NCBI GenBank assembly: GCA_029239355.1
Contig: JAQZAZ010000008.1
Span: forward strand, 24,197-88,196
DNA from: Sphingobacterium sp.
GTDB lineage: Bacteria > Bacteroidota > Bacteroidia > Sphingobacteriales > Sphingobacteriaceae
Direction of reading: 5' to 3'
Length of the DNA: 64,000 bases
A model generated the notes under the pieces. That model saw nothing but the letters and a program-made list of their open reading frames with translations. It did no database searches and was not told where the DNA came from. The translations under genes were made by a program, and so were the position numbers. Positions 16,469 through 52,821 of this stretch are shown one piece after another; the stretch's first letter is position 1; each line of letters begins with the position of its first letter.

Positions 16469-18979
16469 ATGAAGCAGACAATTCTCATATGGTTTTTTAT
16501 ATTTTTTTCGCTCGGTAGTCTGTCGGCGCAGACAGGTGAAATCCATGTTGGTAAACAAAGCAACAAGGAACAACGGGATGGCAGCCCGGGAGCTCCATTT
16601 TCATGTTTGGAGGATGCCCTGCGTGAGGCTAGGGAATGGCGACGATTAAACGATCCGCGCATGCGGCATGGCATCACAATCTGGATTCAGGACGGACAGT
16701 ATGTGCCCACCCAGACCATTTTTATCCGCCCTGAAGACAGCGGAACAGCCGAAAGTCCGACATGGATAAAAGCGGTAGGCAACGAAGCCGTATTTTCGGG
16801 TGGGATTTCTGTTATAGACTGGCGGCAAGTAAAAAGTGAAAAGAGATTGGATCCTGCTATTGCTAAGCATATCATGGTGGCAGATGCCCCTCAGGCCGGA
16901 GGAAAGTATTTCCCTTTCTGTCAATTGTGGGTTGGCTCACGTAAAGCAATCCGTGCGGAAAGTCACGATGATGCCCACTTGCCCCGGATCATCAATTGGG
17001 ATTTTCAAAAACAAGCGGCCGTCATTCCGAACGTGTTACCGAAAAGGTTTGCCTATAAGGCCGGTATGGAGTTTTTCATCCATCAGTGGTGGGCAATAGC
17101 ACAGCTCCGGGTTCGTGAGGCGGTAGTCACAAAAGATAGTACCACACTATTTTTTCATGAACCGGAAGGTAAATTACAGAATGAACACCCTTGGCCTAAG
17201 CCTTGGTTGTCTAAGGAATATGGCAATTCGGCATTTCGTCTGGTCAATGCCCTTGAATTTTTGGATCAGCCGGGAGAATGGTTTTTGGATGAAGAAAACC
17301 ATAAAGTATATTATTATAAAAGACCTGATGAAAACTTAGATAAGTTACATGTTGTAGCGCCTTATCTCGAAACGATCCTGAGGATGCAAGGGACTTTGGA
17401 ATCACCTGTTTGTCATGTATATATCGAAGGGCTTCAATTTCAGCACAGCTCCTGGTTAAGGCCGTACTACTACGGACACGTTGCCTTACAGGCGGGAATG
17501 TATTTTTTGGACGCCTATAAACTGGCTAAACCAGGCACTAAGGATAAAGCGGGATTGGAGAATCAGGCTTGGCTGGGACGGCCTCAAGCGGCAGTCATGC
17601 TTAGCCATACGGCCTTTACCAATATTTCAGCTTGCCGATTTTCCCATTTGGCAGCAACAGGCATTGACTATCGGCAGGGCAACCTGAAGGATAGTCTAAT
17701 TGGCAATCTATTTCAGGACATCGGCGGATCGGGTGTACTGCTCGGTCAGTTTTCAGATGAGGAGATTGAAGCACATTTACCTTTTCAGCCCAGCGATGAG
17801 CGTATCTTGACCGATGGTGTTGTGGTCAGCAATAATCTAATCCAAGATATTGGGAATGAGGATTGGGGAACAGTAGGGATTGGTGCCGGTTTTGTCCGCA
17901 ATGTAGCTATTACAAACAATGAATTGCTTGATCTTCCGTACACAGGCATTAGCTTGGGCTGGGGCTGGACACCTACAGTCAATGCTATGCGTAATAATCG
18001 TGTTTTCAAAAATAAGATCACACGTTATGGCAAATACATGTATGATGTAGCCGGTATTTACACCTTATCGGCTCAGCCCGGAACAAAAATTCAGGAAAAT
18101 TATATCGACAGTATCTATGTGTCGCCTTATGCGCATATTCCTGAACATTGGTTTTATCTCTATACCGATGAAGGCTCAGCCTATATGAATGTCAGCAACA
18201 ACTGGTTCCCATCCAATAAAATATTGCGAAATGCGAATGGGCCGAGTGTTGAGTGGATAAAGAATGGACCCGAGGCGGATGCCAGGGTCAAAGAAGAAGC
18301 TGGCATCGGTCCACGTTATGCCTATTTATTGTCTGAAAAACGATCAATACCTAAAAATGTAGCTTTCAATACATATATTCCTTTTACCAAACCTGTATTT
18401 TTTCAGATCCATGATGCAAAAAAGCAGCTTAAGCTGACTGAAATCAAAGATTTTTTTGCTAAACAAGGAGCCGATAGCAGCCAGGTATATCGTTGGAAGG
18501 ATTACATCTTGCTGATGACAGACGATGAAATCGGTAAGAAAATATCGAGTGCTTGGGTAGCTAATTATCCGGCAATTTCTTATAAGTTGTTCAATGATCT
18601 ATTTTATACGTTCGATCGGAGCAACTGTGGAACCGAGAAAGTGAAAGATATCGATTTTGTGTTACTTACCGCACAACTGGTGGACGATAAATCGAAACAG
18701 GAGGCTTATTTCGAAGCCCATAAAAATCAATCTAAAGAATGGCCCGAAGTTGCAGCAGGGTTCTGCAAAGCCGGCTTTGACGAGGTATTGGTCTACCGAA
18801 ATGGAAGGCAGCTTATGTTATATATTTCTTTTCCAAAAGGTCAGGATTTTAAAACAATCGATCAGCTGACGACCAGGGACAATCCACGGGTTATGGAATG
18901 GAACAAACTTATGGGGACCTATCAGGAAGGTATTCCCGGAACGGGAGTGAATGAAACATGGATTTTTTATAAACAATAA
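16469..18979 (+). CDS. GH141 (alpha-L-fucosidase, BT1002-type) beta-helix enzyme with C-terminal L-rhamnose/L-fucose mutarotase-like domain
   Basis: FFIHQWWAIAQLR, EFLDQPGEWFLD, LPYTGISLGWGW, DVAGIYTLSAQPG and YLYTDEGS. The C-terminal ~110 aa (Y..AH..WPEV..G..VY..NPRV.EW..LM..YQ) follows the RhaM/FucU-type mutarotase pattern. Signal peptide present. Confidence 0.82.
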   Translation: MKQTILIWFFIFFSLGSLSAQTGEIHVGKQSNKEQRDGSPGAPFSCLEDALREAREWRRLNDPRMRHGITIWIQDGQYVPTQTIFIRPEDSGTAESPTWIKAVGNEAVFSGGISVIDWRQVKSEKRLDPAIAKHIMVADAPQAGGKYFPFCQLWVGSRKAIRAESHDDAHLPRIINWDFQKQAAVIPNVLPKRFAYKAGMEFFIHQWWAIAQLRVREAVVTKDSTTLFFHEPEGKLQNEHPWPKPWLSKEYGNSAFRLVNALEFLDQPGEWFLDEENHKVYYYKRPDENLDKLHVVAPYLETILRMQGTLESPVCHVYIEGLQFQHSSWLRPYYYGHVALQAGMYFLDAYKLAKPGTKDKAGLENQAWLGRPQAAVMLSHTAFTNISACRFSHLAATGIDYRQGNLKDSLIGNLFQDIGGSGVLLGQFSDEEIEAHLPFQPSDERILTDGVVVSNNLIQDIGNEDWGTVGIGAGFVRNVAITNNELLDLPYTGISLGWGWTPTVNAMRNNRVFKNKITRYGKYMYDVAGIYTLSAQPGTKIQENYIDSIYVSPYAHIPEHWFYLYTDEGSAYMNVSNNWFPSNKILRNANGPSVEWIKNGPEADARVKEEAGIGPRYAYLLSEKRSIPKNVAFNTYIPFTKPVFFQIHDAKKQLKLTEIKDFFAKQGADSSQVYRWKDYILLMTDDEIGKKISSAWVANYPAISYKLFNDLFYTFDRSNCGTEKVKDIDFVLLTAQLVDDKSKQEAYFEAHKNQSKEWPEVAAGFCKAGFDEVLVYRNGRQLMLYISFPKGQDFKTIDQLTTRDNPRVMEWNKLMGTYQEGIPGTGVNETWIFYKQ

Positions 18980-18980
18980 A

Positions 18981-20075
18981 ATGGAACAGATACAACAGTT
19001 AAAATTAGGAATTTTAGGACTTGGTGAAGGACGTAGCACGATGTCTGCGGCATTACAAAGTCCATATATCGATTTGGTCAAGATCTGCGATCTGAACGAA
19101 GACCTAGGACGCAAACGTATGAAAGAATTTGATTTTCATGATTATACCAATGATTATCAAGCAATGCTTAATGATAAAAGCATTGAAGCTATTGCAATTT
19201 ATACCCCGGATCATCTTCACGCACAGCATATCCGATTGGCGCTGGCGCACGATAAACACGTGATCTGCACCAAGCCATTTATTGATAATCTGGCCGATGC
19301 CAATGGTTTATTGGAACTCGCAGCTCAGAAAAATAAGCGTGTATTTGTTGGGCAGAGCTCCCGTTTTTTTGAACCGGTGAAAAAGCAAAGAGAAGATTTT
19401 GAAGCTGGACTGATCGGTGAGTTGATTACCATCGAAGGTTATTACCATGCTGATCACCGCTGGTTTTTGGAGAAGCCTTGGTCTTTACAGTCTTCCTTCA
19501 AATGGCTTTACGGTGGGTTGAGTCATCCGGTTGATTTTATCCGCTGGTATCTGCCGAATATTGAAGAGGTGATGGGATATGGCATGCTGAGCGCCAACGG
19601 AAAAAAAGGAGGGCTGCAAAATCCAGACACCATGCATTTTATTTTCAAGACCGAAGATGGCCGTGTAGCCCGAGTAAGTGGTGCGTATACCGGACCTGTA
19701 CAGCCTGTCACACGGGATAGTGAGATGAGTTGTATTTTACGGGGGACCGAAGGTGCTAGTCAGGCAGATTATATGGACCTCCGGTATGCAATTACGGATA
19801 AAACGGGCGAAGAACGCATGCTGACATGGGAGCATAAACTAAAGCATTACTTCCGTTTCGAAGGAAAAAGCCATCATGCCGGTGAATATCAAAATTACCT
19901 GGAGCACTTCGCAAAAGCTATCCGTACCGGAGAGGATGCCTCCCCAGATATGAAAGAGGGTATAGGTACTATAGCCTTATTGCAAGCTATGGATGAATCA
20001 TTGACAACAGGAAAGCCTGTCCGTCCAAAGGAACTGCTGGAAAGATATGGTGTCGACTTGAACCTAGGAAGATGA
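18981..20075 (+). CDS. Gfo/Idh/MocA family NAD(P)-dependent oxidoreductase (cytoplasmic)
   Basis: Rossmann LGILGLG, IYTPDHLH and HVICTKP (TKP in place of EKP); no signal peptide. ATG 18981 lies 1 nt after the GH141 stop. Confidence 0.9.
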   Translation: MEQIQQLKLGILGLGEGRSTMSAALQSPYIDLVKICDLNEDLGRKRMKEFDFHDYTNDYQAMLNDKSIEAIAIYTPDHLHAQHIRLALAHDKHVICTKPFIDNLADANGLLELAAQKNKRVFVGQSSRFFEPVKKQREDFEAGLIGELITIEGYYHADHRWFLEKPWSLQSSFKWLYGGLSHPVDFIRWYLPNIEEVMGYGMLSANGKKGGLQNPDTMHFIFKTEDGRVARVSGAYTGPVQPVTRDSEMSCILRGTEGASQADYMDLRYAITDKTGEERMLTWEHKLKHYFRFEGKSHHAGEYQNYLEHFAKAIRTGEDASPDMKEGIGTIALLQAMDESLTTGKPVRPKELLERYGVDLNLGR

Positions 20076-21652
20076 ATAGTATCTTAGACAAGTTAACCAT
20101 TTACGACTATTGTATCGTCGTAGTCTATTTGTTAGCATTACTGACGATCGGCCTCTTGTCATCCCGTAAAAAGGTTGAAGGGGCAGAACACTTCCTGGCC
20201 AGCAAATCCTTAAGCTGGTACAGTATTGGATTCAATATGTGGGCGACTAACGTCGGACCATCCATGTTGCTGGCTTTTGCTACAGTAGGCTATACAACGG
20301 GCATCGTTGCGGTCAATTTTGACTGGTATGCTTTTATCTATCTTTTCCTATTGGCGGTGGTGTTTGCGCCACGCTATATTTCTACCGGAGTACGCACCCT
20401 GCCTGAGTTTATGGGTAAGCGGTTCGGTCCAAATACGCAAACTATTCTGGCTTGGTATTCATTGGTAAAAATGCTTATTTCATGGTTGTCGTTGGGGCTG
20501 TTTGCTGGCGGATTTTTAGTGCGGCAGATTTTGGGAATTCCAATGTGGCAATCGGTTACTGTTTTAGTCTCCCTAGCTGGTCTGTTTGCGTATACGGGTG
20601 GATTAAAGACAGTTGCTAAAATCAATATCTTTCAGATGATCTTGCTGATCGCCGTGTCGGCCTTTCTGACTTTCCTGGGACTTTCCAAAATCGGTGGCAT
20701 AAGTTCTTTAATGCAACAGACTCCCGCCAATTATTGGTCGTTGATCAGACCGGCAAGTGATCCAGATTATCCCTGGTATGCCATCGCTTTAGGTTATCCA
20801 GTGGCAGCGATCGCTTTTTTCTGTACGGATCAAGCCATGGTACAATCAGTTTTGGGTGCAAAGAATCTCGAACAGGGGCAACTGGGAATTAATTTTATCG
20901 CTTGGCTCAAGATACTTTCCTTGCCGCTGTTTATCCTCACCGGTATCATCTGTTCGGTTTTATTTCCGGGACTTAAAGACCCATCACTTGCTTATATGAC
21001 CATGGTGACCAACCTGTTTCCTACAGGCCTGAATGGATTGGTAATCGTGGTGTTAATTGCTGTATTGGTGGGCACCATTGGTTCGTCGCTTAATTCTTTG
21101 AGTACCGTTTTCACCATGGACATATATCTGAAGCATATCCGGCCAGATGCAAACAATAAGCAAATCACCCAGGTAGGACGTTATACTGTCATCATCGGCT
21201 GTCTAGCTTCAGTTTTCGTTGCCCTGGCGATTGATCAAATTAAAGGGCTCAATCTTTTCGATGTATTTCAGTCTATTCTCGGATTTATTGCGCCACCTTT
21301 AGCTGTTGCTTTTCTGATGGCCGTGTTGTGGAAAAGAACCAATCGAGCAGCAATCAATACGATTTTGACTTTTGGTGCGGTACTTAGCCTGGGGACAGGT
21401 GTATGTTATCTCTGGATTTTCCCAAAAGATGTTTATTCCTTTTGGCCGCATTATCTAATGCTTTCCTTTAGTCTATTTATGCTGCTACTTATTATTGGAA
21501 TAGGCCTAGCATACTGGGTACCCAAGTCGGTTTATGAAATGGAACATGGGGATATGTACGATATCACTGTGGAGAAACCAAGTGGACGCGTCAAGATTGC
21601 CTGGGCAATGTTATTTGTGGTTATGCTCTTGTTGTATATTTATTTTAAATAG
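20072..21652 (+). CDS. Sodium:solute symporter (SSS/SGLT family) sugar transporter
   Basis: About 14 hydrophobic segments, WYSIGFNMWATNVG, LPEFMGKRFG, GGLKTV and DQAMVQSVLGAK; ATGA overlap with the oxidoreductase. Confidence 0.92.
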   Translation: MNSILDKLTIYDYCIVVVYLLALLTIGLLSSRKKVEGAEHFLASKSLSWYSIGFNMWATNVGPSMLLAFATVGYTTGIVAVNFDWYAFIYLFLLAVVFAPRYISTGVRTLPEFMGKRFGPNTQTILAWYSLVKMLISWLSLGLFAGGFLVRQILGIPMWQSVTVLVSLAGLFAYTGGLKTVAKINIFQMILLIAVSAFLTFLGLSKIGGISSLMQQTPANYWSLIRPASDPDYPWYAIALGYPVAAIAFFCTDQAMVQSVLGAKNLEQGQLGINFIAWLKILSLPLFILTGIICSVLFPGLKDPSLAYMTMVTNLFPTGLNGLVIVVLIAVLVGTIGSSLNSLSTVFTMDIYLKHIRPDANNKQITQVGRYTVIIGCLASVFVALAIDQIKGLNLFDVFQSILGFIAPPLAVAFLMAVLWKRTNRAAINTILTFGAVLSLGTGVCYLWIFPKDVYSFWPHYLMLSFSLFMLLLIIGIGLAYWVPKSVYEMEHGDMYDITVEKPSGRVKIAWAMLFVVMLLLYIYFK

Positions 21653-21658
21653 CCTTTG

Positions 21659-22435
21659 TCAAGTTAATCCTAGATTGGATTCAATTTGTGATCTGCATTT
21701 TTTTAAACTTTCAACAATAGTTTCGGTCGGCATATTCTGCCCAATTTGACGTCGGACGAGCTTTGAAACCGTGAGGCAGGCGATGATGCCTGTTTCGCTG
21801 GTTCCGATGGGAACAGAAATATCGATGATGCCTTCCGCGTATGCGCTGGGCATCTCATAAAAGCCTTTGCGTTTGATTTCGGCTAGGTCGCTATCAAATT
21901 GCTGACGTTCTGCTTTCTTCAAGCTGCGGTAATAGGGATCGGTTTCTAAAATGGATTTTCTTTTTTTAGCCTCTGAAAAACTTAAAAGGAGCTTTCCAGA
22001 CGCGGTCTGGGACGTGTTGTAGAGGTTGCCTTCCTCAATCATGATGCTGATGGGCGACGAACCTCTGGCATAAGCGATGACCATGACCTGATTGTCGTAA
22101 ATAACACAGAGGTGACAAGGGTCTTTGATTTCGTTGGACGTATCCTGCATCGGTAGTAATGACGTTGCCCGTAGTTTCTCTACAAAGGAATGCCGGTGTG
22201 AAAGATAGTATAGCTTCAGTGAAAGCGAATATTTAGATGAAATTGGATCACGATGAATGTAACCGTTGGACTCCAGTGATGCAAGCATGCGATAGATTTC
22301 ATTGGGACTTCGATGCAAGCCCAAGGCGATCTCGGATTGGGATTGTGCTGTTGGTTGTAAGGCCAGAAATTCAAGAATCTGCAATCCTTTTTCGAGCGCT
22401 GGTGCTTTATATTTATCGGAGCTATTTACTATCAT
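21659..22435 (-). CDS. IclR family transcriptional regulator
   Basis: N-terminal wHTH (YKAPALEKGLQILEFLA...EIA..L......IYRML..L...GYI..D) and C-terminal effector domain (EIKRKGFY..ISVPI). It is the only minus-strand gene, divergent from the CoA-transferase operon. Confidence 0.93.
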   Translation of the reverse strand: MIVNSSDKYKAPALEKGLQILEFLALQPTAQSQSEIALGLHRSPNEIYRMLASLESNGYIHRDPISSKYSLSLKLYYLSHRHSFVEKLRATSLLPMQDTSNEIKDPCHLCVIYDNQVMVIAYARGSSPISIMIEEGNLYNTSQTASGKLLLSFSEAKKRKSILETDPYYRSLKKAERQQFDSDLAEIKRKGFYEMPSAYAEGIIDISVPIGTSETGIIACLTVSKLVRRQIGQNMPTETIVESLKKCRSQIESNLGLT

Positions 22436-22819: not shown

Positions 22820-23983
22820 ATGACAGAGAAAATCCAGTTAAAAGGGATTACCTGGGGGCATACCAGAGGCTTTGTACCAATGGTTGCGACTGCGCAGCGT
22901 TATGAAGAATTATGTCCAGCAGTTGAAATTGTTTGGACAAAACGGACTTTACAGGAATTTGCTGATAAGTCAGTGACAGATTTGGCAATGGAATACGATC
23001 TATTGGTCATTGACCATCCATGGACGGGACATGCTGCTGCGAAGGGGATGCTCGCTGCATTTGATGATTACCTATCCGCAGATTTTTTGGCAGATCAGCG
23101 TACTAATAGTGTTGGGAAATCTCATGAAAGCTATAACTTTCTTGGAAAGCAATGGGCATTGGCTACGGATGCTGCAACACCGGTGGCTGCAAGTCGTCCG
23201 GATCTTTTACAAGCCTTGCAAGTGGCACTTCCACGTACATTTGAAGATGTTTTAGTGCTAGCAAAAACCGGAAAAGTCGGATTTTCGCTGTTACCGATTG
23301 ATTCCTTGATGCACTTTTACGGTCTTTGTTGTTCTTTGGGTGAAGAACCTTGCCAAGATAACGAAAAAGTAATCAGCGACACAGTTGGAATAAAGGTCTT
23401 AAAATTATTCAAATCACTTGCCGATGAATTGGATCCCGGATTTTATGAGAAAAATCCATTTAAGGTTTTCGAAGAAATGACTCAGCGTGATGAAATTGCT
23501 TACTGTCCATTTGCTTATGGCTATTCGAATTACGCTCGGGCAGGTTATGCACGTAAGGTGTTGCATTTTCATGATTTAGTGTCATTAAATGGTACGCCTA
23601 TGATCAGCACACTTGGCGGGGCGGGGCTGGCAGTATCTTCACAGGGCAAGCATATTGATGTGGCCATGGATTATGCACGATTTGTCGCGACACCGGAAGT
23701 TCAGAAAACGCTATATGTCGAAAATGGCGGCCAGCCTGGACATTTAGGTGCCTGGAAAAATGAGCAGGTAAATGCCGTTACGGCCAATTATTTTAGCAAT
23801 ACACTACCCGCATTAGATCGGGCTTATTTGCGCCCGCGTTATGATGGTCATCTTTATTTTCAGGATCATGCTGGTGATATCGTGGTTGATTATCTAAGGG
23901 ATGGCGGCGACGAAAAGGCGGTTTTGGACAAAATGAATGCGATGTATCGGGAATCATTAGTCGATAAAGAAGATCATGGATAA
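22820..23983 (+). CDS. Solute-binding-protein fold (SBP_bac_1-like) protein without signal peptide
   Basis: YDLLVIDHP, WALATDAA and TLGGAGLAVS...FV..PEVQ are typical of sugar SBPs. N-terminus MTEKIQLKGITWGH has no hydrophobic or lipobox signal, and the alternative TTG at 22772 adds none. Confidence 0.8.
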   Translation: MTEKIQLKGITWGHTRGFVPMVATAQRYEELCPAVEIVWTKRTLQEFADKSVTDLAMEYDLLVIDHPWTGHAAAKGMLAAFDDYLSADFLADQRTNSVGKSHESYNFLGKQWALATDAATPVAASRPDLLQALQVALPRTFEDVLVLAKTGKVGFSLLPIDSLMHFYGLCCSLGEEPCQDNEKVISDTVGIKVLKLFKSLADELDPGFYEKNPFKVFEEMTQRDEIAYCPFAYGYSNYARAGYARKVLHFHDLVSLNGTPMISTLGGAGLAVSSQGKHIDVAMDYARFVATPEVQKTLYVENGGQPGHLGAWKNEQVNAVTANYFSNTLPALDRAYLRPRYDGHLYFQDHAGDIVVDYLRDGGDEKAVLDKMNAMYRESLVDKEDHG

Positions 23984-25127
23984 TAAACCACTGGAAGGAC
24001 TTTTGGTCCTCGAGTTTTCACAATTTATGGCTGGGCCAACTGCTGGCCTGCGTTTGGCGGATCTCGGTGCCCGAGTCATCAAAATTGAACGCCCGGGGGC
24101 TGGCGAAGGGGGACGGCAGATTGCGATTAAAAATATTTTTGTAGATGAGAGTAGCCTGGTCTTTCATACCATCAACAGAAATAAAGAATCGTATGCAGCC
24201 AATTTGAAAGATGAAAATGATCTGGAAAATATTAAAAAATTAATCCGTCAGGCAGATGTGATGACACATAACTTCCGCCCCGGTGTCATGGAAAAGATCG
24301 GTTTGGATTACGAGAGTGTGCGGAAAATTAACCCCAAAATGATCTATGCCACGGTAACTGGCTACGGCAATGAAGGGCCATGGGCTAAAAAGCCAGGGCA
24401 GGATTTACTCGTGCAATCTCTGTCGGGACTTTCCTGGTTATCGGGCTGTGCGCAGGATGGGCCGGTTCCTTTTGGATTGGCCGTGGTGGATATGTACTGT
24501 GCCACACATCTGACACAAGGTATATTGGCAGCATTGTTGAAACGTACCCGTACCCAACAGGGAGCTCTTGTTGAAGTCAGTTTGCTTGAATCTGTGTTGG
24601 ATATGCAGTTTGAAATGCTGACCACACATGTCAACGATGGCCGCAAGCTGCCTCAGCGGTCGACGGTTAGAGGAGCTGGCCATGCTTATTTAAGTGCGCC
24701 TTATGGACTCTACAAAACCCTTGATGGCTATCTAGCCTTGGCCATGGGCAATGTAAGGCATATAGCAGAAACCATAGGCTTGCCTGGAAAGTCCTATCAA
24801 GATGCTTCAACTTGGTTTTCACGACGTGACGAAATACTTCAAGAATTTGCTGCAGTATTGTGTCAAAAGACAACGTGCGAGTGGATATCCCGTTTGGAAT
24901 CCGAAGGGATTTGGTGTGGCGTAGTAAACGATTATCATCGTTTCTTCGAGGAACAAGGTTTTAAGGAGGCAGGGATGTTGCAGGAAGTCACTTTACAAGA
25001 TGGCACCGCATTGACCACCACCCGTAGCGTGTACCAGATCGATGGAAAGCGTTTATATGCGGATAAACCTGCGCCAAAAGTGGGCCAGCATACGGCATCA
25101 ATTGTTCACGATTATTTAGAAAATTAA
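23976..25127 (+). CDS. Class III (CaiB/BaiF) CoA-transferase, subunit 1
   Basis: [16 protein letters not shown]...[36 protein letters not shown] and catalytic-Asp region VVDMYCA. Confidence 0.93.
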
Positions 25128-25128
25128 T

Positions 25129-26271
25129 ATGTTACCACTAGCAGGTTATACCGTAGTCGACTTTAGTCAATTTTTATCCGGCCCATTAGCAAGTTTACGG
25201 CTAGCTGACTTAGGTGCGCGGGTTATAAAAATAGAAAAACCAGAGACGGGTGATATTTGCAGGCAATTATATACCTCTGATACGATATTGAATGGTACTT
25301 CAACAGTGTTTCATGCCATTAATCGGAATAAAGAAAGTATGGTGTTGGATTTGAAAAGCGAATCCGACAAACAGATTATACATGATTTAATCGCACGGGC
25401 AGATGTGGTGTTGCACAATTTTCGTCCGGGTGTCATGGAACGTTTGGGCTTTGACTATGCAGGTGTCCGAGAGATCAATCCGACCGTGATTTATGGAGAG
25501 ATCTCGGGATATGGAAAAGAAGGCCCCTGGGTTAAGCGGCCTGGCCAGGATTTATTATTGCAATCGCTTACCGGGATGACTTGGTTAAGTGGCGATGCAA
25601 ATAATGGTCCAGTAGCCATGGGACTTTCCGTTGTGGACATGTTTGCCGGATCCAATCTATGTAGTGCCGTATTGGCCTGCCTGTACCGTCGAGCGATGCA
25701 GGGGATAGGAGCGCATGTTCATGTTAGCATGTTGGATTCTGCTGTGGATATACAGTTTGAGGCCGTCACAACCTATTTTCGTGATGGCAAATTGTTGCCA
25801 CAACGTAGCGAGGTGAGCAATGCACATGCATATTTGGCAGCACCTTATGGGGTGTATCGTACGCAGGATGGTTTTCTGGCCCTTGCGATGGGTTCCATTC
25901 CTTTTCTTGGTAAATTATTGAATTGTAGCGCATTAGAAGGTTTTGCTGACGGAGAGCAAGCTTTTCGGGAGAGAGATACCATTAAAGCTATTTTAGCCGA
26001 GCACCTGACGACAGCACCTACTTGGCATTGGCTGGAGATACTGGAAGCAGCGGATATCTGGTGCGCCGATGTCTTGGATTGGCGTCATCTGACCGAACAT
26101 AATGCTTTTAAAATATTAAACATGCTACAGCAAGTAACGATGGGCGATGGCTTCCGTTATGAGACCACCCGTTGCCCCATTCGCATCGATGGCGAGCGGT
26201 TGACCGCGACAAAAGGTTCGCCCAAACTTGGTGAGCACACAACTAAAATATTGGAGGAACTGTATGGATAA
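25129..26271 (+). CDS. Class III (CaiB/BaiF) CoA-transferase, subunit 2
   Basis: [16 protein letters not shown]...[38 protein letters not shown] and PKLGEHT; an evident paralogue of the preceding gene. Confidence 0.93.
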
Positions 26272-27487
26272 GTTACGTTTTGCTGTCCGGAAATTTGAAC
26301 CCTTTGAGCGTGCCATGGAGAAATGTTGGGCAGCCTATCAGGAGGTATATCCATCGGATGTGGAGATGGAGTTTGTTCCGCTGGATTTAGAGGAATTGAC
26401 AGCAGCTTTCTTTGAAAAGAAAGGCCTCAAGAATGGCGATTGGGATATCATTCACATCAATACCGATTGGATTGCACGGGCCTATGAAACCAAGGGTTTG
26501 TCGGCACTGGATAGTATGATCGTACAGAATCCACCGGAAGACCTGAAAGGGGCTTGGCCAGAAAGCTTACAAGCTTTACAGCGTTTTGACCAGCAAATAT
26601 TTGGCTTGCCTTTTCATGATGGTCCTGAATGCCTGGTTATTCGAAAAGATTTATTTGAAGATTTGCAAGAACAGATGCGTTTTCAGGTACGCTACGGAAA
26701 ACCTTTGGAAATTCCAAAAACCTGGGCTGATTTTTTGACTGTTGCAGCATTTTTTACGCGGCCGGAAGATAACTTGTACGGGACAGTGTTTGCTGGCTAC
26801 CCGGATGGGCATAATGCGGTATTTGATTTTTGTATTCAACTTTGGTCCCGCGGTGGAGATTTGCAGCAAGGCGACGTACCTGTTAAGCTGGATCAGCCAT
26901 TAGCTATAGATGCATTGGATTTTTATCGTAGCTTATTTATGAAGGATAGCGGATTGCATCCCGAATCGGCTAATTTTGAATCAGTGCAGGCTGGTGCCGC
27001 CTTTGCGCGGGGTGAAGTAGCTATGATGGTCAATTGGTTTGGTTTTGCATCCTGGGCACAGATTGATGCCGCCTCGGCCGTAAAAGGTAAGGTGGATGTA
27101 GCAGCTATTCCTTCAGCAGAAAGCGGGATGTCCCCCTCATTAAATGTGTATTGGTTGTATGCAATTCCAGAAGGTAGTCGTCATAAGCAGTTGGCTTATG
27201 ACTTTATACGTTTTGCAGTCGGACGCCAACAAGATAAGCTGCTCACTGTCGAAGGAGGAGTAGGCTGTCGTTACTCCACCTGGTATGATTCCGAAATCAA
27301 TCGGATGATACCCTTTTATAATAAATTGGCTGAATTGCACGATACTGCACGCACATTACCGCGCTTAGCCAACTGGCCGCAGATTGCACATATCATCGAT
27401 GATACTGTAATTGCTGCGATAAAGACCGATGAAAGTAGTCTTTCATTATTAACAAAAGCACAGGAAAAAATAAATGCATGGTTATGA
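26264..27487 (+). CDS. Second solute-binding-protein fold (SBP_bac_1-like) protein without signal peptide
   Basis: [42 protein letters not shown] and AYDFIRF. It starts [10 protein letters not shown] at ATG 26264 (8-nt overlap) with no signal peptide. Confidence 0.82.
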
Positions 27488-28557
27488 TAGATATCCCTTA
27501 TAAAACGATTTTACCCCAGACTGCTTTGCCGATTATCATTATTGGTGCAGGGGGTATAGTGAAAGATGCGCATCTCCCGGCTTATCGTAAGGCAGGCTTT
27601 CATGTGCATGGTATTGTCAATCGTACAAAGGCGAAAGCGGAAGCATTGGCGGTAGAATTTGGTATTCCACATGTTTACGATACGGTGGAAGATGCCGTCG
27701 CACAGGCTCCCGAAAATGCGGTTTATGATGTAACCATTATGCCCAATAAATTTATAGAAACCTTGGAGGCATTACCTCAGGGCGCGGCTGTATTAATTCA
27801 GAAGCCAATGGGTGATTATTATGCAGATAGTCAGGCGATATTAGAAGTCTGTCAACGTAAAGAATTGGTCGCAGCGATCAACTGTCAGCTTCGGCAGGCA
27901 CCTTTTGTGAATGCGGCACGCTGGCTGATTGACCAAGGTTATATCGGTGAACTGTATGATATGGAAGTGCGGGTGTCGGTGCATACACCTTGGCAACTTT
28001 TTCCCCATGTCATGGTACACCCACGCTTGGAGATTCTGTATCACAGTGTTCATTATATTGATTTGATCCGCTCATTTTTAGGCAATCCACAGTCGGTGTA
28101 TGCAAAAACATTGAAGCACCCGGCCAAAGCCTTATCATCCAGCAGGACGACCTTGCTATTTGATTACGGAGACACACTACACGCTGTTGTAAATACCAAT
28201 CATGACCATGAATTTGGGCCGAAGCATGAGGAAAGCTATATCAAATGGGAAGGTACCAAGGGGGCTATCAAAGCGACGATGGGTTTGCTGATGGATTATC
28301 CGCATGGGGTATCCGACGTGTTTGAATATTGTATCAAGCCAATAGATGGCAGTCAACCGGAATGGGTGGCCTACCCGATCGAGGGAACTTGGTTTCCCGA
28401 TGCTTTCATCGGAAGCATGGGTAGCTTGATGCGTTTTAAACTGGGTGAAATAGCGGTATTACCGGCCGCGGTTGAAGATGTAATCCATACCATGGCCGTC
28501 GTAGAGGCTGCTTATCAAAGCAGTGCCCAAGGGGGGCAACCGATAACAAAAGGATAA
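27484..28557 (+). CDS. Gfo/Idh/MocA family oxidoreductase (candidate aldose dehydrogenase)
   Basis: IIGAGGIV...H, LIQKPMG, YHSVHYIDLIR and WEGTKG. ATG 27484 gives an ATGA overlap; ATG 27478 is the alternative start. Confidence 0.9.
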   Translation: MIDIPYKTILPQTALPIIIIGAGGIVKDAHLPAYRKAGFHVHGIVNRTKAKAEALAVEFGIPHVYDTVEDAVAQAPENAVYDVTIMPNKFIETLEALPQGAAVLIQKPMGDYYADSQAILEVCQRKELVAAINCQLRQAPFVNAARWLIDQGYIGELYDMEVRVSVHTPWQLFPHVMVHPRLEILYHSVHYIDLIRSFLGNPQSVYAKTLKHPAKALSSSRTTLLFDYGDTLHAVVNTNHDHEFGPKHEESYIKWEGTKGAIKATMGLLMDYPHGVSDVFEYCIKPIDGSQPEWVAYPIEGTWFPDAFIGSMGSLMRFKLGEIAVLPAAVEDVIHTMAVVEAAYQSSAQGGQPITKG

Positions 28558-28593: not shown

Positions 28594-29046
28594 ATGCATT
28601 TCGAATCTATTTTTTTTGAAGATTATATATTAAACGATAAACGGACAACATTGGGCCGCACGATTACCGAAACAGATTTTGTTGTTCATGCCGGACATAC
28701 AGGAGATTTCTTCCCCCATCACCTCGATGCGGAATGGTGCAAGACCCAACCCTTTGGACAACGTATTGCGCATGGAACAATGATCTTTGCGATTGGTATC
28801 GGACTGACGGCCTCAGTTATTAATCCGGAAGCATTTTCCAAAGGCTACGATCGCCTTCGTTTTGTCAAGCCCGTATTTATTGGTGATACCATCCACGCAG
28901 AGGTGACTATTTCTGAAAAATCCGATGCAAAAAAGCCTGAATTTGGTACCGTAGTTGAGCATGTTGAAATTATCAATCAACATGGTGTGGTGGTGTTGGT
29001 CGCAGACCATATCCTATTGGCAAAACGCAAGGAAGCTTCAATTTAA
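28594..29046 (+). CDS. MaoC-like hot-dog fold acyl-CoA dehydratase/hydratase
   Basis: [16 protein letters not shown] (hydratase D-x4-H dyad), RIAHG and [13 protein letters not shown]. Confidence 0.92.
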
Positions 29047-29057
29047 CCTATTATCAC

Positions 29058-30353
29058 ATGGAAATTGGTACAAAAACACCGATCAAGTTAACCGGGGCAG
29101 CTTCTACTAAGGGGTACCTGCTTCCGTTTATTCTGATTGTCAGTCTGTTTTTTTTATGGGGGATGGCCCATAATTTAAATGGCGTTCTGATCCCGCATTT
29201 GAAAAAAGCCTGTCAGTTGAATAATAGCCAGTCGGCGCTGGTTGATACTTCAGTTTTCTTCGCTTATTTCATTATGGCACTGCCGGCGGGTTATGTTTTG
29301 CGCAAATGGGGGTATAAATTGTCCATTATTATAGGACTGGTTACTTTCTCCGTCGGTGCATTTCTTTTTATCCCTGCGGCAGATCACCGTATGTATGAGC
29401 TCTTTTTGCTGGCATTATTTATTATTGGTTGTGGACTAGCCTTATTGGAAACAGCGGCTAATCCTTATGCTGCAGTTTTGGGTAAGCCTGAAGCAGCAAC
29501 ACATCGGCTTAATTTGGCGGCCTCCTTTAATGGATTGGCGGCAATGGTCGCTCCAGTTATAGGTACCACCTTTATTTTGTCGGGTACGAGCTATTCAGAA
29601 ACGGAACTGGCGGCTATGACGGAGAGCAATCGGTTAGCGTATCTGCTTCATGAAGCGTCTTCCGTGAAAATGCCTTATTTGATATTAGGTTTAATCTTGT
29701 TAGTCGTAGCGCTAGTCTTTTTGTTTGTTAAACTGCCTGAAATTCAAGGTGAAAAGACGGAGGGGGGGAAGAAGCAAAAGTCTGGCTTATTTGCAGTACT
29801 TCGACATAAGCATTTGAGTTTTTCTGTAGTCGCGCAGTTTTTCTATGTTGGAGCGCAGGTTTGTGTGACTAGTTTTTTTATTCGTATGGCACAGCAGGGA
29901 GCCGGTGTCGATGAGAAGACTGCGGGGTATTTCCTAGGTGTATATGGTTTGCTCTTTATGGGCGGACGTTTTGTCGGTACCCTATTGTTGCGTTATACGA
30001 CAGCCCAGCGTTTATTGGCTATTTATGCCATTTGTTGCGCTATATTGGCAACTGTAGCCATTTCGGGGACAGGTATGGTCATCTTGTATGCGCTAGGTGG
30101 ACTTGGTTTCTTTATGTCAATTATGTTTCCTACGATTTTTTCTTTGGGTATTGCTGGACTCGGAAACGAGACGAAACAAGCCTCTTCTTGGTTGATTATG
30201 TCAATTGTCGGTGGAGCCGTATTCCCCTTTGTGACCGGAAATATTATTGATGCGCTGCATGATAATACGCAGATTGGTTATAGTGTACCTTTGGTCTGTT
30301 ATCTTGTTATTTTATGGTTTGCACTGAAAGGATATAAACCGGCAAAAGCCTAA
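29058..30353 (+). CDS. fucP: L-fucose:H+ symporter family MFS permease
   Basis: SLFFLWGMAHNLNGVLIPHLK, LETAANPY, NLAASFNGL, QFFYVGAQV, SIMFPTIFSLG and MSIVGGA. The true substrate is not established. Confidence 0.88.
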   Translation: MEIGTKTPIKLTGAASTKGYLLPFILIVSLFFLWGMAHNLNGVLIPHLKKACQLNNSQSALVDTSVFFAYFIMALPAGYVLRKWGYKLSIIIGLVTFSVGAFLFIPAADHRMYELFLLALFIIGCGLALLETAANPYAAVLGKPEAATHRLNLAASFNGLAAMVAPVIGTTFILSGTSYSETELAAMTESNRLAYLLHEASSVKMPYLILGLILLVVALVFLFVKLPEIQGEKTEGGKKQKSGLFAVLRHKHLSFSVVAQFFYVGAQVCVTSFFIRMAQQGAGVDEKTAGYFLGVYGLLFMGGRFVGTLLLRYTTAQRLLAIYAICCAILATVAISGTGMVILYALGGLGFFMSIMFPTIFSLGIAGLGNETKQASSWLIMSIVGGAVFPFVTGNIIDALHDNTQIGYSVPLVCYLVILWFALKGYKPAKA

Positions 30354-42972: not shown

Positions 42973-45294
42973 ATGATTGAAAAACGTATTATAGGTATTC
43001 TAGTTTTAATAATTGTTTTGTTAAACCCAATTGGGGCTCAAGAGTTCAATTGGAAAGACTACAATGTATCTTGGACCACACAGAGCAAAAATTCATCTGA
43101 ATCCATGCCTGTCGGTGGTGGAGATATCGGATTGAACGTTTGGGTGGAGAATGGCGAATTACTTTTGTACTTGGGAAAGACAGGTGCATTTGACGAGAAC
43201 AATACTTTGTTGAAGCTCGGCCGCATTCGCCTCCATCTATATCCCAACCCCTTTGCAGATGGAAAATTCCAGCAGGAATTGCAGTTGGATAAAGGCCATA
43301 TTGTCTTGAAGGGCCAAAGCAAAGGCGTTAAGGCCGAAGTACTGGTTTGGGTAGATGTGTTTAATCCCAATGTACATCTCGAAGTAAGTGCCAATCAGAA
43401 GATCAAGGTGGAAGCAGCTTACGAGAGCTGGCGTTTTCAGGATCTGTTTCCTAAGAAGAAGGAAAATAATGCGAATTCTTGGAAGTGGGCACCGCAAAAA
43501 CCAGTGGTGACACATAAAGATCAGATTGTGGCAGAAGCAAACAATATTGTTTTCTACCATCAAAATCAAGCGACTACCGCGTTTGACCTTGTCGTCGATC
43601 AACAAGGGCTGACAACCATTAAAGATTCGTTATATAATCCCTTGAAAAACAGGATTTCAGGCGGTCTTTTAAAAGGTGAAGATTTTGAATACGTTGGCCA
43701 GCGTGCAGGGACCTATATGAATACGCCGTACCAGTCTTGGATACTCAAAAGTAAAGCGGCAAAGACCAATCATGTGCTTCAAGTGACGTTGCATGTAGGG
43801 CAACAAGCAGACTTGCAACACTGGAAAACAGCACTGGAGGATCTGGCTACACCCAAACCTACCTTTGTATCGCTCAAACGAGCGACAGAATCCTGGTGGA
43901 AATCCTTTTGGGATAGAAGTCATATCGTCATCCAGCCTGGCTTAACAGATCCCAATAATGAAGCTTGGCAAGCTGGTCGAAACTATCAGTTGTTTCGATT
44001 TATGCTGGCTTGTAACGCTTATGGGGATTATCCGACAAAATTTAACGGGGGTTTATTCACCTATGATCCTGTCACAATTGATAGTACGTTTACGTTCACA
44101 CCGGATTTTCGTAATTGGGGTGGAGGTACCCACACGGCACAAAATCAGCGCTTGGTCTATTGGCCATTATTGAAGAGCGGTGATTTTGATCTAATGCCGG
44201 CACAATTTAAGTTTTACCAACGCCTTTTGGGGAACGCCGAATGGCGATCCAAATTTTATTGGGGGCATTCTGGCGCAAGCTTTACGGAGCAGATTGAAAA
44301 TTTTGGTTTACCCAATCCAGCAGAATACAATTGGAAACGGCCAAAAGATTTCGATAAGGGCCTAGAATATAATGCTTGGCTGGAATATGAGTGGGATACC
44401 GTACTGGAGTTCTGCATGATGATGCTGGAGACCGAACGTTACAATAAATCCGATATTCAGGCTTATATACCATTAATCGAGAGCTGCCTACGCTTTTTTG
44501 ACGAGCATTATCAATACCGGGCACGACAACGGGGCAGCAAGGTATTGGACGATGCAGGTCATCTTGTCTTGTATCCAGGTTCCTCCGCGGAAACCTATAA
44601 AATGGCGTATAATTCGGCAACGACGATTGCGGCTTTGCAGCAAGTAACCAAAGGATTGCTGGCATTACCCGAGACTTATGTCAATTCAGAATCACGGCGT
44701 TATTTTCAGGGTTTTTTGACCAGAATCCCACCTTTGCCGCAACGTGAACTTGGAGGCAAAAAGATGTTGGCGCCAGCACAGCTATGGGCCCGGGTCAACA
44801 ATACCGAATCCCCGCAGCTCTATCCTGTATATCCTTGGGGAATTTACGGTATTGGTAAACACGACATGGATATTGCTCTCAATACCTACAAGTATGATCC
44901 CGATGTGCTTAAATTCAAAAGTCATATCGGCTGGAAGCAGCATAATATCTTTGCCGCACGGTTGGGATTGACGGACGAAGCGAAGCAATTGACTGTCTCG
45001 AAACTCAAAAATGCAGAACGGCGATTTCCAACATTTTGGGGGCCGGGCTTTGACTGGGTTCCGGATCATAACTGGGGCGGTTCGGGCATGATCGGCTTAC
45101 AGGAAATGCTTTTGCAGGTAGTGGATGATAAAATTTACCTTTTTCCGGCATGGCCCAAAGATTGGGATGTGGATTTTAAGCTGCATGCTCCCGGGCAGAC
45201 CACCGTCGAAGGGAGGTTAAAGGATGGTAAATTATTGGATCTAAAAGTTTTTCCAAAAGAACGGGAAGCAGCTATTATCAACCTCTTAAAATAG
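42973..45294 (+). CDS. GH95-like (alpha/alpha)6 glycosidase (BT1010-type alpha-L-galactosidase candidate)
   Basis: SESMPVGGGDIGLNVW, YQLFRFMLA, HTAQNQRLVYW, ESPQLYPVYP, PDHNWGG and LFPAWPKDWDV.FKLHAP. The specificity is from recalled similarity only. Confidence 0.72.
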   Translation: MIEKRIIGILVLIIVLLNPIGAQEFNWKDYNVSWTTQSKNSSESMPVGGGDIGLNVWVENGELLLYLGKTGAFDENNTLLKLGRIRLHLYPNPFADGKFQQELQLDKGHIVLKGQSKGVKAEVLVWVDVFNPNVHLEVSANQKIKVEAAYESWRFQDLFPKKKENNANSWKWAPQKPVVTHKDQIVAEANNIVFYHQNQATTAFDLVVDQQGLTTIKDSLYNPLKNRISGGLLKGEDFEYVGQRAGTYMNTPYQSWILKSKAAKTNHVLQVTLHVGQQADLQHWKTALEDLATPKPTFVSLKRATESWWKSFWDRSHIVIQPGLTDPNNEAWQAGRNYQLFRFMLACNAYGDYPTKFNGGLFTYDPVTIDSTFTFTPDFRNWGGGTHTAQNQRLVYWPLLKSGDFDLMPAQFKFYQRLLGNAEWRSKFYWGHSGASFTEQIENFGLPNPAEYNWKRPKDFDKGLEYNAWLEYEWDTVLEFCMMMLETERYNKSDIQAYIPLIESCLRFFDEHYQYRARQRGSKVLDDAGHLVLYPGSSAETYKMAYNSATTIAALQQVTKGLLALPETYVNSESRRYFQGFLTRIPPLPQRELGGKKMLAPAQLWARVNNTESPQLYPVYPWGIYGIGKHDMDIALNTYKYDPDVLKFKSHIGWKQHNIFAARLGLTDEAKQLTVSKLKNAERRFPTFWGPGFDWVPDHNWGGSGMIGLQEMLLQVVDDKIYLFPAWPKDWDVDFKLHAPGQTTVEGRLKDGKLLDLKVFPKEREAAIINLLK

Positions 45295-51753: not shown

Positions 51754-52821
51754 ATGATAAGATCAACAATAGGTTATAGTGCTATTTTAATGCTGGCAAG
51801 CAGTTTGTTTATGAAAACTTTCTCGCAAACACAAAAAACGTTATTTGTCAAATCGGCCTATCCGACACCAGTAATTACAGAAGATCATCCTGATGTTTTG
51901 AAAAGCCAGAATAAAGCTGGTTTTGAAACAGGGCAGATTGTAAAGATTGAAGGAACCTATCACATGTTTATTAACGAGATGTTCGATCGACCTCATAAGG
52001 ACATGCGTATTGCTTATTGGACGAGTTTGGATGCAATACATTGGCAAAGACAGTCAACAATTGTGGAAAGCATTCTTGGAAGATCACCATATAATCCTCG
52101 CTCTGAGGTATGGGTAACAGCGGTTGAATTCAATAAACAGGAGAATGCATGGAATATTTTTTATGTTTCTTATCGTGCTGGTGATAAAGAAAAAGGCGAA
52201 GTCCTCGATTTTGACTATGCCGGTCGTATTTGGCGGGCGAAATCAGTAATTCCAGGTAAGAAGGGTATTGCGGGTCCTTATGCTGATATGGGTATTGTGT
52301 TACAGCCGGACGAGAATAGTCAACCTTGGGAAGGTCAACAGGCAGTTGCAGCATTTAATCCCTACAAAGTCGGTAATACTTGGTATGCGTTTTATGATGG
52401 GCATACCCATATTCCAAAGGGTGATTGGCCGCTTGGAATGGCGACGGCTACGACACTCAATGGACCTTGGAGACGTATGCCTCTTGGTCATAATCCAATT
52501 CCAATATCTCCGATATTTAATGAAAACTTGCAGGTTACGGAACTAAAAAAGGGACATTATTTAGCAGTTTTCGATTCGATGGGGGATCAGGAAATTGGCT
52601 ATAGCCTTTCTAGTGACGGTATACATTGGACTTCAGAAAAGCGACTGAAAATCCAGACCAGTGATCATCTTTGGGCAGAAGATGGTGATCATGCTACCCG
52701 TACACCATTGGGTGCGATAGAGGAAGAAGACGGTACATTAACGGTATTATACACCGCAATGTATAAAATGAATGGACGTACATTCTATGGATTGGGCAAA
52801 TGTACCTTAGATTGGAAATAA
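51754..52821 (+). CDS. Secreted five-bladed beta-propeller protein, putative unclassified glycoside hydrolase
   Basis: Signal peptide and propeller blade repeats (YHMF..WTSLDAIHW; WNIFY; WYAFY..GPWRR; IGYSLSSDGIHW; LTVLY). The GFETG, WEGQQ and RTPLG segments match no family I can name. Confidence 0.6.
   Translation: MIRSTIGYSAILMLASSLFMKTFSQTQKTLFVKSAYPTPVITEDHPDVLKSQNKAGFETGQIVKIEGTYHMFINEMFDRPHKDMRIAYWTSLDAIHWQRQSTIVESILGRSPYNPRSEVWVTAVEFNKQENAWNIFYVSYRAGDKEKGEVLDFDYAGRIWRAKSVIPGKKGIAGPYADMGIVLQPDENSQPWEGQQAVAAFNPYKVGNTWYAFYDGHTHIPKGDWPLGMATATTLNGPWRRMPLGHNPIPISPIFNENLQVTELKKGHYLAVFDSMGDQEIGYSLSSDGIHWTSEKRLKIQTSDHLWAEDGDHATRTPLGAIEEEDGTLTVLYTAMYKMNGRTFYGLGKCTLDWK

Follow-up and report, generated by a model that had tools for sequence, protein, structure and literature searches.

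Two leaderless solute-binding-fold proteins chained to coenzyme A-transferase and dehydrogenase genes in Sphingobacterium: candidate cytoplasmic partners of soluble sugar-acid enzymes

What are two proteins with the fold of transporter-bound sugar-binding proteins doing in an operon of soluble enzymes? The question is raised by a 64-kb stretch of Sphingobacterium sp. DNA (contig JAQZAZ010000008.1; all 64,000 nucleotides analysed are referred to as the window), in which two genes for solute-binding-fold proteins (SBPs), SBP1 and SBP2, are interlocked with genes for family III coenzyme A (CoA)-transferases and a Gfo/Idh/MocA oxidoreductase. Judging from their sequences, the best explanation is that both are cytoplasmic proteins descended from the CUT1 sugar-binding proteins of ATP-binding cassette (ABC) transporters, without export or transport partners. 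As such, they point to an undescribed cytoplasmic job for the fold.

Membership of the solute-binding families was clear at both the sequence and the structure level. SBP1 scored 42.9 bits against Pfam SBP_bac_1 and 42.4 bits against SBP_bac_8, and SBP2 89.9 and 82 bits, all above the respective cut-offs of 26 and 27 bits. AlphaFold2 models made from orthologue alignments reached predicted local distance difference test (pLDDT) scores of 94.7 for SBP1 and 94.5 for SBP2, the latter in closed form, and both displayed the two-lobe type II periplasmic-binding-protein fold. The top matches of a Foldseek search against the PDB were all CUT1 sugar SBPs (MalE3, TMBP, GacH, SmoF and 5IAI; TM scores 0.80-0.87), the best structural neighbours of SBP2 being MalE3, TMBP, 5IAI and SmoF. 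What both proteins lack is a leader. SBP1 opens with MTEKIQLKGITWGH, and strand 1 of the models begins at residue 5 in SBP1 and at residue 3 in SBP2, leaving no room for a signal peptide. Their lengths of 387 and 407 aa are counted from ATG; the longest SBP1 reading frame opens at TTG 22772, and a TTG also lies upstream of SBP2 at 26228. Neither a signal peptide nor a lipobox was found in SBP1 or SBP2, and no hydrophobic segment occurred in their N-termini or in the upstream TTG extensions, which are polar. The absence of signal peptide and lipobox had already been remarked upon in a sequence-only reading of the window, and the models bear it out.

The leaderless state is not peculiar to this genome. 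SBP1 and SBP2 shared 22% identity in BLASTP and 18% in a profile match (99.2% probability), and their sequences suggest two old, separate leaderless families. When SBP2 was searched exhaustively against 1.84 billion representative proteins, 79 matches fell below 1e-30. The N-terminal hydrophobic segment was absent in 25 of the 27 nearest full-length relatives; at ranks 81-150 it was present in 22 of 30, with 8 of 30 leaderless, and signal peptides were confined to relatives below about 30% identity. Such a distribution shows the missing leader to be a trait of the clade rather than an error of annotation, and the ratio of 25:2 among the nearest 27 full-length clusters supports the cytoplasmic, non-transport role proposed in the sequence-only reading. 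Likewise, SBP1 relatives from a collection of 5.8 billion proteins were 362-410 aa long and opened at the motif GITWNH(T/S)RG; an orthologue (P0390) was found in Mucilaginibacter yixingensis. SBP1 orthologues of five phyla displayed 45-62% identity and 60 invariant columns (25 sequences), by which measure SBP1 appears as conserved as the enzymes it accompanies.

Transport partners were sought at three levels. All open reading frames (ORFs) of at least 150 aa in the 64-kb window were scanned against Pfam, and no ABC permease or ATPase was found among them, in agreement with the earlier statement. A genome-wide BPD_transp_1 search gave 14 matches at 8 loci, none of them on the window's contig. 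The sole CUT1 permease pair of the genome lies on a contig whose composition is not foreign to the genome (C17) and comes with its own lipoprotein SBP; the other complete loci (phosphate, methionine, betaine, amino acid, peptide) each have an SBP of their own, and a further, peptide-type-like pair sits on a 3.5-kb contig (C154). An orphan transporter serving SBP1 and SBP2 was rejected, since the complete permease loci own their SBPs; no cognate orphan CUT1 permease was found genome-wide, with the reservation that the assembly is 91% complete and that absence elsewhere in the genome is therefore not absolute. At the third level, one genome per prokaryotic species was scanned with a motif of the SBP2 clade, which yielded 333 confirmed stretches; the loci counted here and below are the best 80. 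CUT1-type ABC permeases occurred within 8 kb in 3 of these 80 loci. In one of them (L037) the permeases directly follow SBP2, yet that SBP2 copy is leaderless; in the others (L075, and L094 of Streptomyces) the nearby ABC systems own longer SBP genes of 572 aa and 477 aa. A different partnership of SBP2 was encountered in two Latescibacterota loci (L014, 3416-7350; L020, 1069-5117), where the leaderless gene is preceded by an ABC-2-type exporter-like ATPase gene and two ABC2_membrane_6 genes, which stand in place of the CoA module.

The genes of the operon, and the regulator gene facing it, are as follows.

22820..23983, (+): SBP1, leaderless CUT1 solute-binding-fold protein, 387 aa (Pfam, AlphaFold2 model)
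23976..25127, (+): CoATa, family III CoA-transferase, accessory paralogue (CoA_transf_3, 326 bits)
25129..26271, (+): CoATb, family III CoA-transferase, orthologue of the single copy of other phyla (CoA_transf_3, 336 bits)
26264..27487, (+): SBP2, leaderless CUT1 solute-binding-fold protein, 407 aa (Pfam, AlphaFold2 model)
27478..28557, (+): Gfo, Gfo/Idh/MocA NAD(P) oxidoreductase (GFO_IDH_MocA N- and C-terminal domains)
28594..29046, (+): MaoC-type (R)-specific hydratase/dehydratase of CoA thioesters (MaoC_dehydratas, 76 bits)
29058..30353, (+): FucP-family sugar:H+ symporter of the major facilitator superfamily (TIGR00885 fucP, 357 bits; cut-off 280.4)
21659..22435, (-): IclR-family regulator, divergent from the operon (HTH_IclR and IclR_C domains)

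The 8-nt overlaps between each SBP gene and a CoA-transferase gene, which had been noticed before, were read again from the sequence: the SBP1 stop and CoATa start, like the CoATb stop and SBP2 start, share the letters ATGGATAA. In addition, the SBP2 stop overlaps the Gfo start by 10 nt and a gap of 1 nt separates CoATa from CoATb, so that all five genes SBP1-CoATa-CoATb-SBP2-Gfo are chained. SBP2 is tied to the Gfo dehydrogenase as tightly as to the CoA-transferase, a coupling that the sequence-only reading had missed. A scan of the operon for promoters and terminators gave counts equal to those of shuffled controls and was hence uninformative.

The same association was found far beyond Bacteroidota. 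The best 80 loci came from Acidobacteriota, Chloroflexota, Planctomycetota, Verrucomicrobiota, Latescibacterota, Kiritimatiellia and Bacteroidota, and in most of them tblastn with the window proteins recovered SBP1, one CoATb-like CoA-transferase, SBP2, Gfo, MaoC and IclR, often with a second MaoC. The recurring order was SBP1-CoA-transferase-(MaoC)-SBP2 together with a Gfo/Idh/MocA dehydrogenase, MaoC and IclR, an order also encountered in a Streptomyces. When same-strand neighbouring pairs were counted, SBP1 stood before the CoA-transferase in 39 loci (no more than 10 nt apart in 34 of them) and the CoA-transferase preceded SBP2 in 29, both pairs mostly overlapping; CoA-transferase to MaoC (12 loci), MaoC to SBP2 (13) and Gfo to SBP1 (13) were the other recorded pairs. 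An arrangement repeated in dozens of loci of other phyla is more than chance, and the tie to a family III CoA-transferase, which the sequence-only reading had drawn from the window, gains support from it. In other phyla, too, an IclR gene stood alongside the module at many of the loci. The best explanation is that the module is an old, horizontally widespread catabolic gene set present in at least five bacterial phyla; no description of it was found in full-text literature searches. Many loci, among them L015, L022, L034, L052, L076, L090 and other Acidobacteriota, carried two types of Gfo (about 55% and 35% identical to that of the window) and two types of MaoC (about 62% and 35%), which indicates a larger form of the module than the one in the window.

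The enzymes of the module retained family hallmarks. CoATa and CoATb shared 50% identity, and their CoA_transf_3 matches spanned the whole model. CoATb displayed 53-66% identity to the single CoA-transferase lying between SBP1 and SBP2 in other phyla and is the universal copy, CoATa-type copies being found only in Bacteroidota and a few Solibacteraceae/Bryobacteraceae loci. Asp172 of CoATa (in GLAVVDMY) and Asp170 of CoATb both lie in a GL(A/S)VVDM motif and match the Asp of formyl-CoA transferase homologues in alignment, so both enzymes keep the residue corresponding to the catalytic Asp of these homologues. The MaoC protein kept the Asp and His of its motif GDFFPHH, and its module orthologues were 56-74% identical. 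Those of Gfo were 48-57% identical in other phyla and 73% identical in one Bacteroidota locus (L067). No NCBIfam equivalog cut-off was reached by CoATa, CoATb or the Gfo enzyme. The best PDB match of Gfo, 5UHW, was considered as apionate oxidoisomerase (ApnO), i.e. as a sign of apiose; this candidate was dropped, as the ApnO paper, which deals with a ketol-acid reductoisomerase-like enzyme and does not cite 5UHW, gives no link (PMC13753588).

Which substrate does the module serve? The permease of the operon exceeded the fucP cut-off, so that its substrate is expected to be a fucose-type monosaccharide and not an oligosaccharide. Unlabelled neighbours of the 80 loci were clustered and representatives scanned. 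The families included RhaT-like permeases (21 loci), fucosidases of glycoside hydrolase (GH) family 29 (17), GH38-like proteins (15), short-chain dehydrogenases/reductases (SDRs; 12), TonB-dependent receptors (10), SDRs resembling L-fucose dehydrogenase (FucDH; 7), GH95 (6) and enolase-superfamily dehydratases (5). In a locus of Kiritimatiellia (L054), an SDR-type L-fucose dehydrogenase gene (NCBIfam 369 bits, cut-off 300) stops 14 nt upstream of SBP2. These data are best explained by a module tied to a 6-deoxy sugar of the fucose type, imported by a FucP or RhaT permease. An oligosaccharide or disaccharide as substrate, as favoured in the sequence-only reading, is not supported in view of the FucP-type monosaccharide symporter, the RhaT-like permeases elsewhere, the need of a CoA-transferase for a free carboxylate and the ligand of 5IAI. 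This last protein (Agrobacterium Arad_9887), among the best structural neighbours of SBP2, holds ribitol, an open-chain pentitol; ribitol is a polyol shaped like an aldonate.

Bulk L-fucose itself seems to be provided for elsewhere in this genome. No fucose isomerase (FucI) was found in it. One contig (C40, 736-4231) carries a FucDH gene (415.6 bits, cut-off 300), a lactonase-like gene (249 bits, cut-off 400), a gene resembling hydrolases of the fumarylacetoacetate hydrolase (FAH) type (359 bits, cut-off 500) and an SDR gene, the lactonase-like and hydrolase-like genes both staying under their cut-offs. Another (C235, 813-4082) carries genes for a UxaA-type dehydratase, a mutarotase-like protein and a second FucP, 51% identical to that of the operon. 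Given this apparently canonical oxidative L-fucose set, the module of this Sphingobacterium probably handles a relative of fucose or a parallel route. Across 40 module-bearing genomes of other phyla, SDR-type FucDH was recorded in at least 3 among the matches listed, a rarity that fits the Gfo enzyme as the aldose dehydrogenase there. A fuconolactonase-like gene occurred in 36 of the 40, none over the cut-off; it weakened the idea of an SBP as substitute lactonase, and a lactonase gene was found within 8 kb of the module in 1 of the 80 loci.

According to the Pfam scan, the window as a whole is a large polysaccharide-utilisation locus of the rhamnogalacturonan II (RG-II) type enclosing the operon. 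Its content comprises SusC/SusD, GH28, GH78, GH2, GH141, GH106, GH127, DUF5703_N, GH43, GH115 and esterases, together with rhamnose catabolic genes. One of these genes serves below as a marker of context.

42973..45294, (+): DUF5703_N protein, context gene (DUF5703_N, 377 bits)

DUF5703_N is the family of the Bacteroides thetaiotaomicron GH139 2-O-methyl-L-fucosidase. Of 301 sampled Bacteroidota genomes, 10 had SBP1 and 12 had a strong DUF5703/GH139-like gene; 9 of the 10 SBP1-bearing genomes also had the latter, usually on the same contig at 18-92 kb. Outside Bacteroidota, such a strong match occurred in 3 of the 40 module-bearing genomes. The link to RG-II is thus a Bacteroidota arrangement, and an RG-II-specific role finds no support for the module at large; RG-II or 2-O-methyl-fucose as a general substrate was weakened by the same counts. 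Two further observations concern the surroundings of the operon. Immediately upstream of the IclR gene, a tightly packed group (16469-21652) encodes a GH141-like protein with a C-terminal RhaM-type mutarotase domain, then a second Gfo/Idh/MocA oxidoreductase and a sodium:solute symporter. In the glycan locus, ORFs 51754-52821 and 63447-63998 had no Pfam match at E <= 1e-4.

The clefts of the two proteins offer hints about their ligands. Invariant columns of SBP1 include W12, H14, R16, R42, D65, H66, D117, R126, Y235, N237, Y238, Q305, W312, R338 and R340. The SBP2 clade displayed 27 invariant columns, including R9, D68, W69, H118, D181, H183, D188, N257, W258, W297, R336 and W340. In a MAFFT alignment with E. 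coli maltose-binding protein (MBP), D68/W69 of SBP2 align with the ligand contacts D65/R66, while H118-G120 and N257 fall within 3 residues of E111 and W230. A profile alignment of the two families showed that they differ in residues at equivalent positions, which argues for different ligands. The predicted cleft positions of SBP1, rich in invariant Arg and His, would suit an acid or anion; the Asp, His and Trp of SBP2 would suit a neutral sugar or a lactone.

Gene fusions help to assign the partners. In Streptomyces sp. B6B3 (L094, 8001-10472), SBP2 is fused to Gfo within a CoA-transferase-SBP1-MaoC-[SBP2-Gfo] operon, and on metagenomic contigs (L095, 527-2266) SBP2 is joined to a VOC/glyoxalase domain, with a Gfo gene next in line. 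Several loci had SBP2 with Gfo or FucDH and no CoA-transferase, and SBP1 was nearly always upstream of the CoA-transferase. The best reading assigns SBP1 to the CoA-transferase and SBP2 to the dehydrogenase. Regulators were also involved in fusions: one protein (P0393) joins a leaderless SBP_bac_1 domain of the SBP2 type to an IclR ligand domain, and seven others (P0202, P0204, P0210, P0212, P0223, P0253 and P0265) combine a LacI helix-turn-helix, Peripla_BP_1 and SBP_bac_1 in about 740 aa, with 27-33% identity to SBP2. From their domain composition, the latter seem to be cytoplasmic repressors with an extra CUT1 SBP domain, distant from SBP2.

Taken together, we tentatively favour a reading that we rate somewhat short of an even chance: SBP1 and SBP2 may be cytoplasmic ligand-binding specificity subunits which, along with the CoA-transferase, Gfo, MaoC and IclR, take part in a CoA-dependent catabolism of fucose-type aldonates. 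The Gfo dehydrogenase would oxidise the sugar at C1 to a lactone or aldonate, and the CoA-transferase would turn the aldonate into its CoA thioester (aldonyl-CoA). MaoC would then take water from C2/C3 of the thioester with departure of the C3 hydroxyl, a step eased by thioester activation, and the CoA would be passed to the next acid molecule; overall, a cycling CoA would bring about dehydration, after the pattern of CaiB/CaiD and FldA/FldBC. The two Venus-flytrap proteins would grip the substrate by its polyol portion and thereby give the enzymes their specificity, SBP1 working with the CoA-transferase and SBP2 with the dehydrogenase. Possible, if doubtful, is the stronger form in which these are the first 'binding-protein-dependent enzymes', with flytraps docking on the CoA-transferase and on Gfo to supply sugar specificity in an unrecognised CoA-thioester branch of 6-deoxy-sugar catabolism.

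Several points weigh against this proposal. A tight, closed-cleft binder is an awkward feeder of an enzyme unless something opens the cleft. MaoC acting on a 2,3-dihydroxyacyl-CoA would give a 2-oxoacyl-CoA, an unusual and reactive product, and the module contains neither a ligase to prime the thioester nor a lyase. Invariant residues were assigned to the clefts by sequence mapping to MBP and not from coordinates; MAFFT misaligned the regions of MBP E153/Y155 and of W340, the remaining SBP2 placements being mapped manually, and the conserved cleft His and Asp would fit catalysis equally well. The SBP2-Gfo fusion, a single record with a low-complexity linker of about 60 aa, is weak alone and could be a sequencing or frameshift artefact. 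Finally, a natural fusion of an SBP with CoA_transf_3, which the sequence-only reading had suggested looking for, was found neither in the 150 best representatives nor in the 80 loci, nor in a search with an 823-aa fusion as query, which scored the best 8000 candidates by shared words and so leaves the absence not proven; the fusions that did occur were SBP2-Gfo, VOC-SBP2 and SBP-IclR_C.

Other readings of the same data deserve consideration. SBP1 and SBP2 might themselves be enzymes in the manner of thiaminase I, opening a lactone, epimerising an acid or thioester, or hydrolysing an enol or enol ether by means of the cleft His, Asp and Arg. The 60 invariant columns of SBP1 are at a level typical of enzymes, suitable residues are invariant in both proteins (H14, H66, D65, D117, R16, R338 and R340 in SBP1; H118, D181, H183 and D188 in SBP2), and a lactonase is nearly always missing from the neighbourhood though the dehydrogenase is near. 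One lineage also joins SBP2 to a VOC domain, the fold of methylmalonyl-CoA epimerase. Yet the top 50 structural neighbours of both models were binding proteins with no enzyme among them, and binders of one ligand likewise keep their cleft residues among orthologues. The fuconolactonase-like genes of 36 in 40 genomes make a surrogate unneeded, and Cys229 of SBP1, though nearly invariant, gives way to another residue in 2 of 25 sequences; on balance, we consider catalysis by these proteins rather unlikely. Another proposal concerns the substrate and overlaps with the other readings: the module would demethylate 2-O-methyl-L-fucose of RG-II, the SBPs recognising the methylated sugar. The acid would be converted to its thioester and by MaoC to 2-methoxy-enoyl-CoA, and hydration with loss of methanol would deliver 2-keto-3-deoxy-L-fuconate to the canonical pathway. 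Its setting in an RG-II-type locus, 15 kb from the DUF5703/GH139-like gene, the company of such genes in SBP1-bearing Bacteroidota and the apparently complete L-fucose set elsewhere in the genome, which leaves the module to serve something else, all speak for it. However, the Bacteroidota association is with a whole RG-II locus and not with one enzyme, neighbours in other phyla are GH29, GH95 and GH38-like proteins in genomes where GH139-like genes are scarce, and the chemistry is hypothetical. On the whole, demethylation as the function is quite improbable.

Two simpler roles can be set beside these. As cytoplasmic ligand sensors acting allosterically on IclR or on the enzymes, SBP1 and SBP2 would stand outside the catalytic route. 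The IclR gene accompanying the module fits such a role, as do leaderless SBP_bac_1 domains joined to the IclR ligand domain and to LacI-type repressors; but these regulator fusions are distant (27-36% identity), IclR has a ligand domain of its own, and a pair of sensors coupled translationally to enzymes, in an order kept constant from phylum to phylum, would be unusual, all of which leaves a purely sensory role very unlikely. Scarcely credible, in our view, is that they are ordinary transport SBPs, with wrongly assigned starts or an unrecognised export route, serving an ABC or secondary transporter elsewhere. Public records do call them 'extracellular solute-binding protein' or 'ABC transporter substrate-binding protein', and ABC permeases lie near the module in the three loci mentioned above. 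Against this, no in-frame upstream extension yields a signal peptide, orthologues of five phyla all begin at strand 1, and the only CUT1 permease pair of the genome is served by its own lipoprotein; in the three loci themselves, the SBP2 copy directly followed by permeases is leaderless and the other two ABC systems have separate SBP genes.

These findings bear on more than this operon. Thousands of public records label these proteins as extracellular or as ABC substrate-binding proteins, a label that is almost certainly wrong for this clade. If the SBPs work with soluble enzymes, one of the best-studied protein folds acquires an added role, and sugar-acid catabolism, thought to be CoA-free, would include a CoA-dependent step. 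The resulting CoA-thioester branch would be used by soil Acidobacteriota, Chloroflexota, Verrucomicrobiota, Actinomycetota and Bacteroidota, the module being common in soil phyla that degrade fucosylated glycans of plants and microbes. In Bacteroidota it forms part of RG-II loci, for which it is still poorly understood what becomes of the rare sugars once hydrolysis has released them.

Comparison with known systems helps to delimit what is new. SBP1 and SBP2 share their Pfam families and two-lobe fold with the SBPs of CUT1 ABC importers (Thermotoga maritima MalE3, 6DTQ; Thermococcus litoralis TMBP, 1EU8; 5IAI; SmoF; GacH), with identities of only 15-24% to any solved SBP; they differ from these in lacking a leader and a permease or ATPase partner and in being coupled translationally to soluble enzymes. 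Repurposed binding-protein folds are already known, both as enzymes and as regulator domains. Thiaminase I, DszB, cyclohexadienyl dehydratase, THI5 and MqnD are enzymes with this fold and catalyse in the cleft between the lobes, whereas no strictly invariant nucleophile was recognised in SBP1 and SBP2, and no sequence or structure match to such enzymes ranked near the top. LacI/GalR and LysR regulators, like the LacI-type fusions with SBP_bac_1, sense ligands in the cytoplasm with periplasmic-binding-protein-type domains; SBP1 and SBP2, by contrast, carry no domain for DNA binding, and their genes are chained to those of enzymes. Subunits of soluble enzymes that present the substrate would, if true, be categorically new.

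On the enzyme side, family III CoA-transferases act with a hydratase or dehydratase in CaiB/CaiD (E. coli carnitine metabolism) and in the clostridial FldA/FldBC and HadA/HadBC systems, where a CoA cycle dehydrates a free acid. Like CaiB and CaiD, the CoA-transferases and the thioester hydratase (MaoC) of the window are encoded in a single operon, here a chained one; their genes also stay together from phylum to phylum, and a similar CoA cycling may operate here. Differences from these three systems are that the hydratase is a MaoC (hot-dog) protein and not a crotonase or radical enzyme, that a sugar acid is presumed to be the substrate, that two partners with a binding-protein fold and a Gfo/Idh/MocA enzyme come in addition, and that a priming ligase is absent. 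Adjacent paralogous family III genes, such as CoATa and CoATb with their 50% identity, are also found in BbsEF (match 9FN0), and SmtAB is a heteromeric family III CoA-transferase encoded by two adjacent paralogous genes; a CoATa-CoATb heteromer is putative, and unlike BbsEF and SmtAB the module of most phyla has a single copy. The oxidative, non-phosphorylative L-fucose pathway (FucDH, fuconolactonase, fuconate dehydratase, 2-keto-3-deoxy-L-fuconate dehydrogenase and FAH-type hydrolase) shares the sugar context of the module; this genome has genes of that pathway as well, and in other loci some of them are neighbours of the module. Yet this pathway, in contrast to the module, needs neither CoA nor a binding-protein-fold component.

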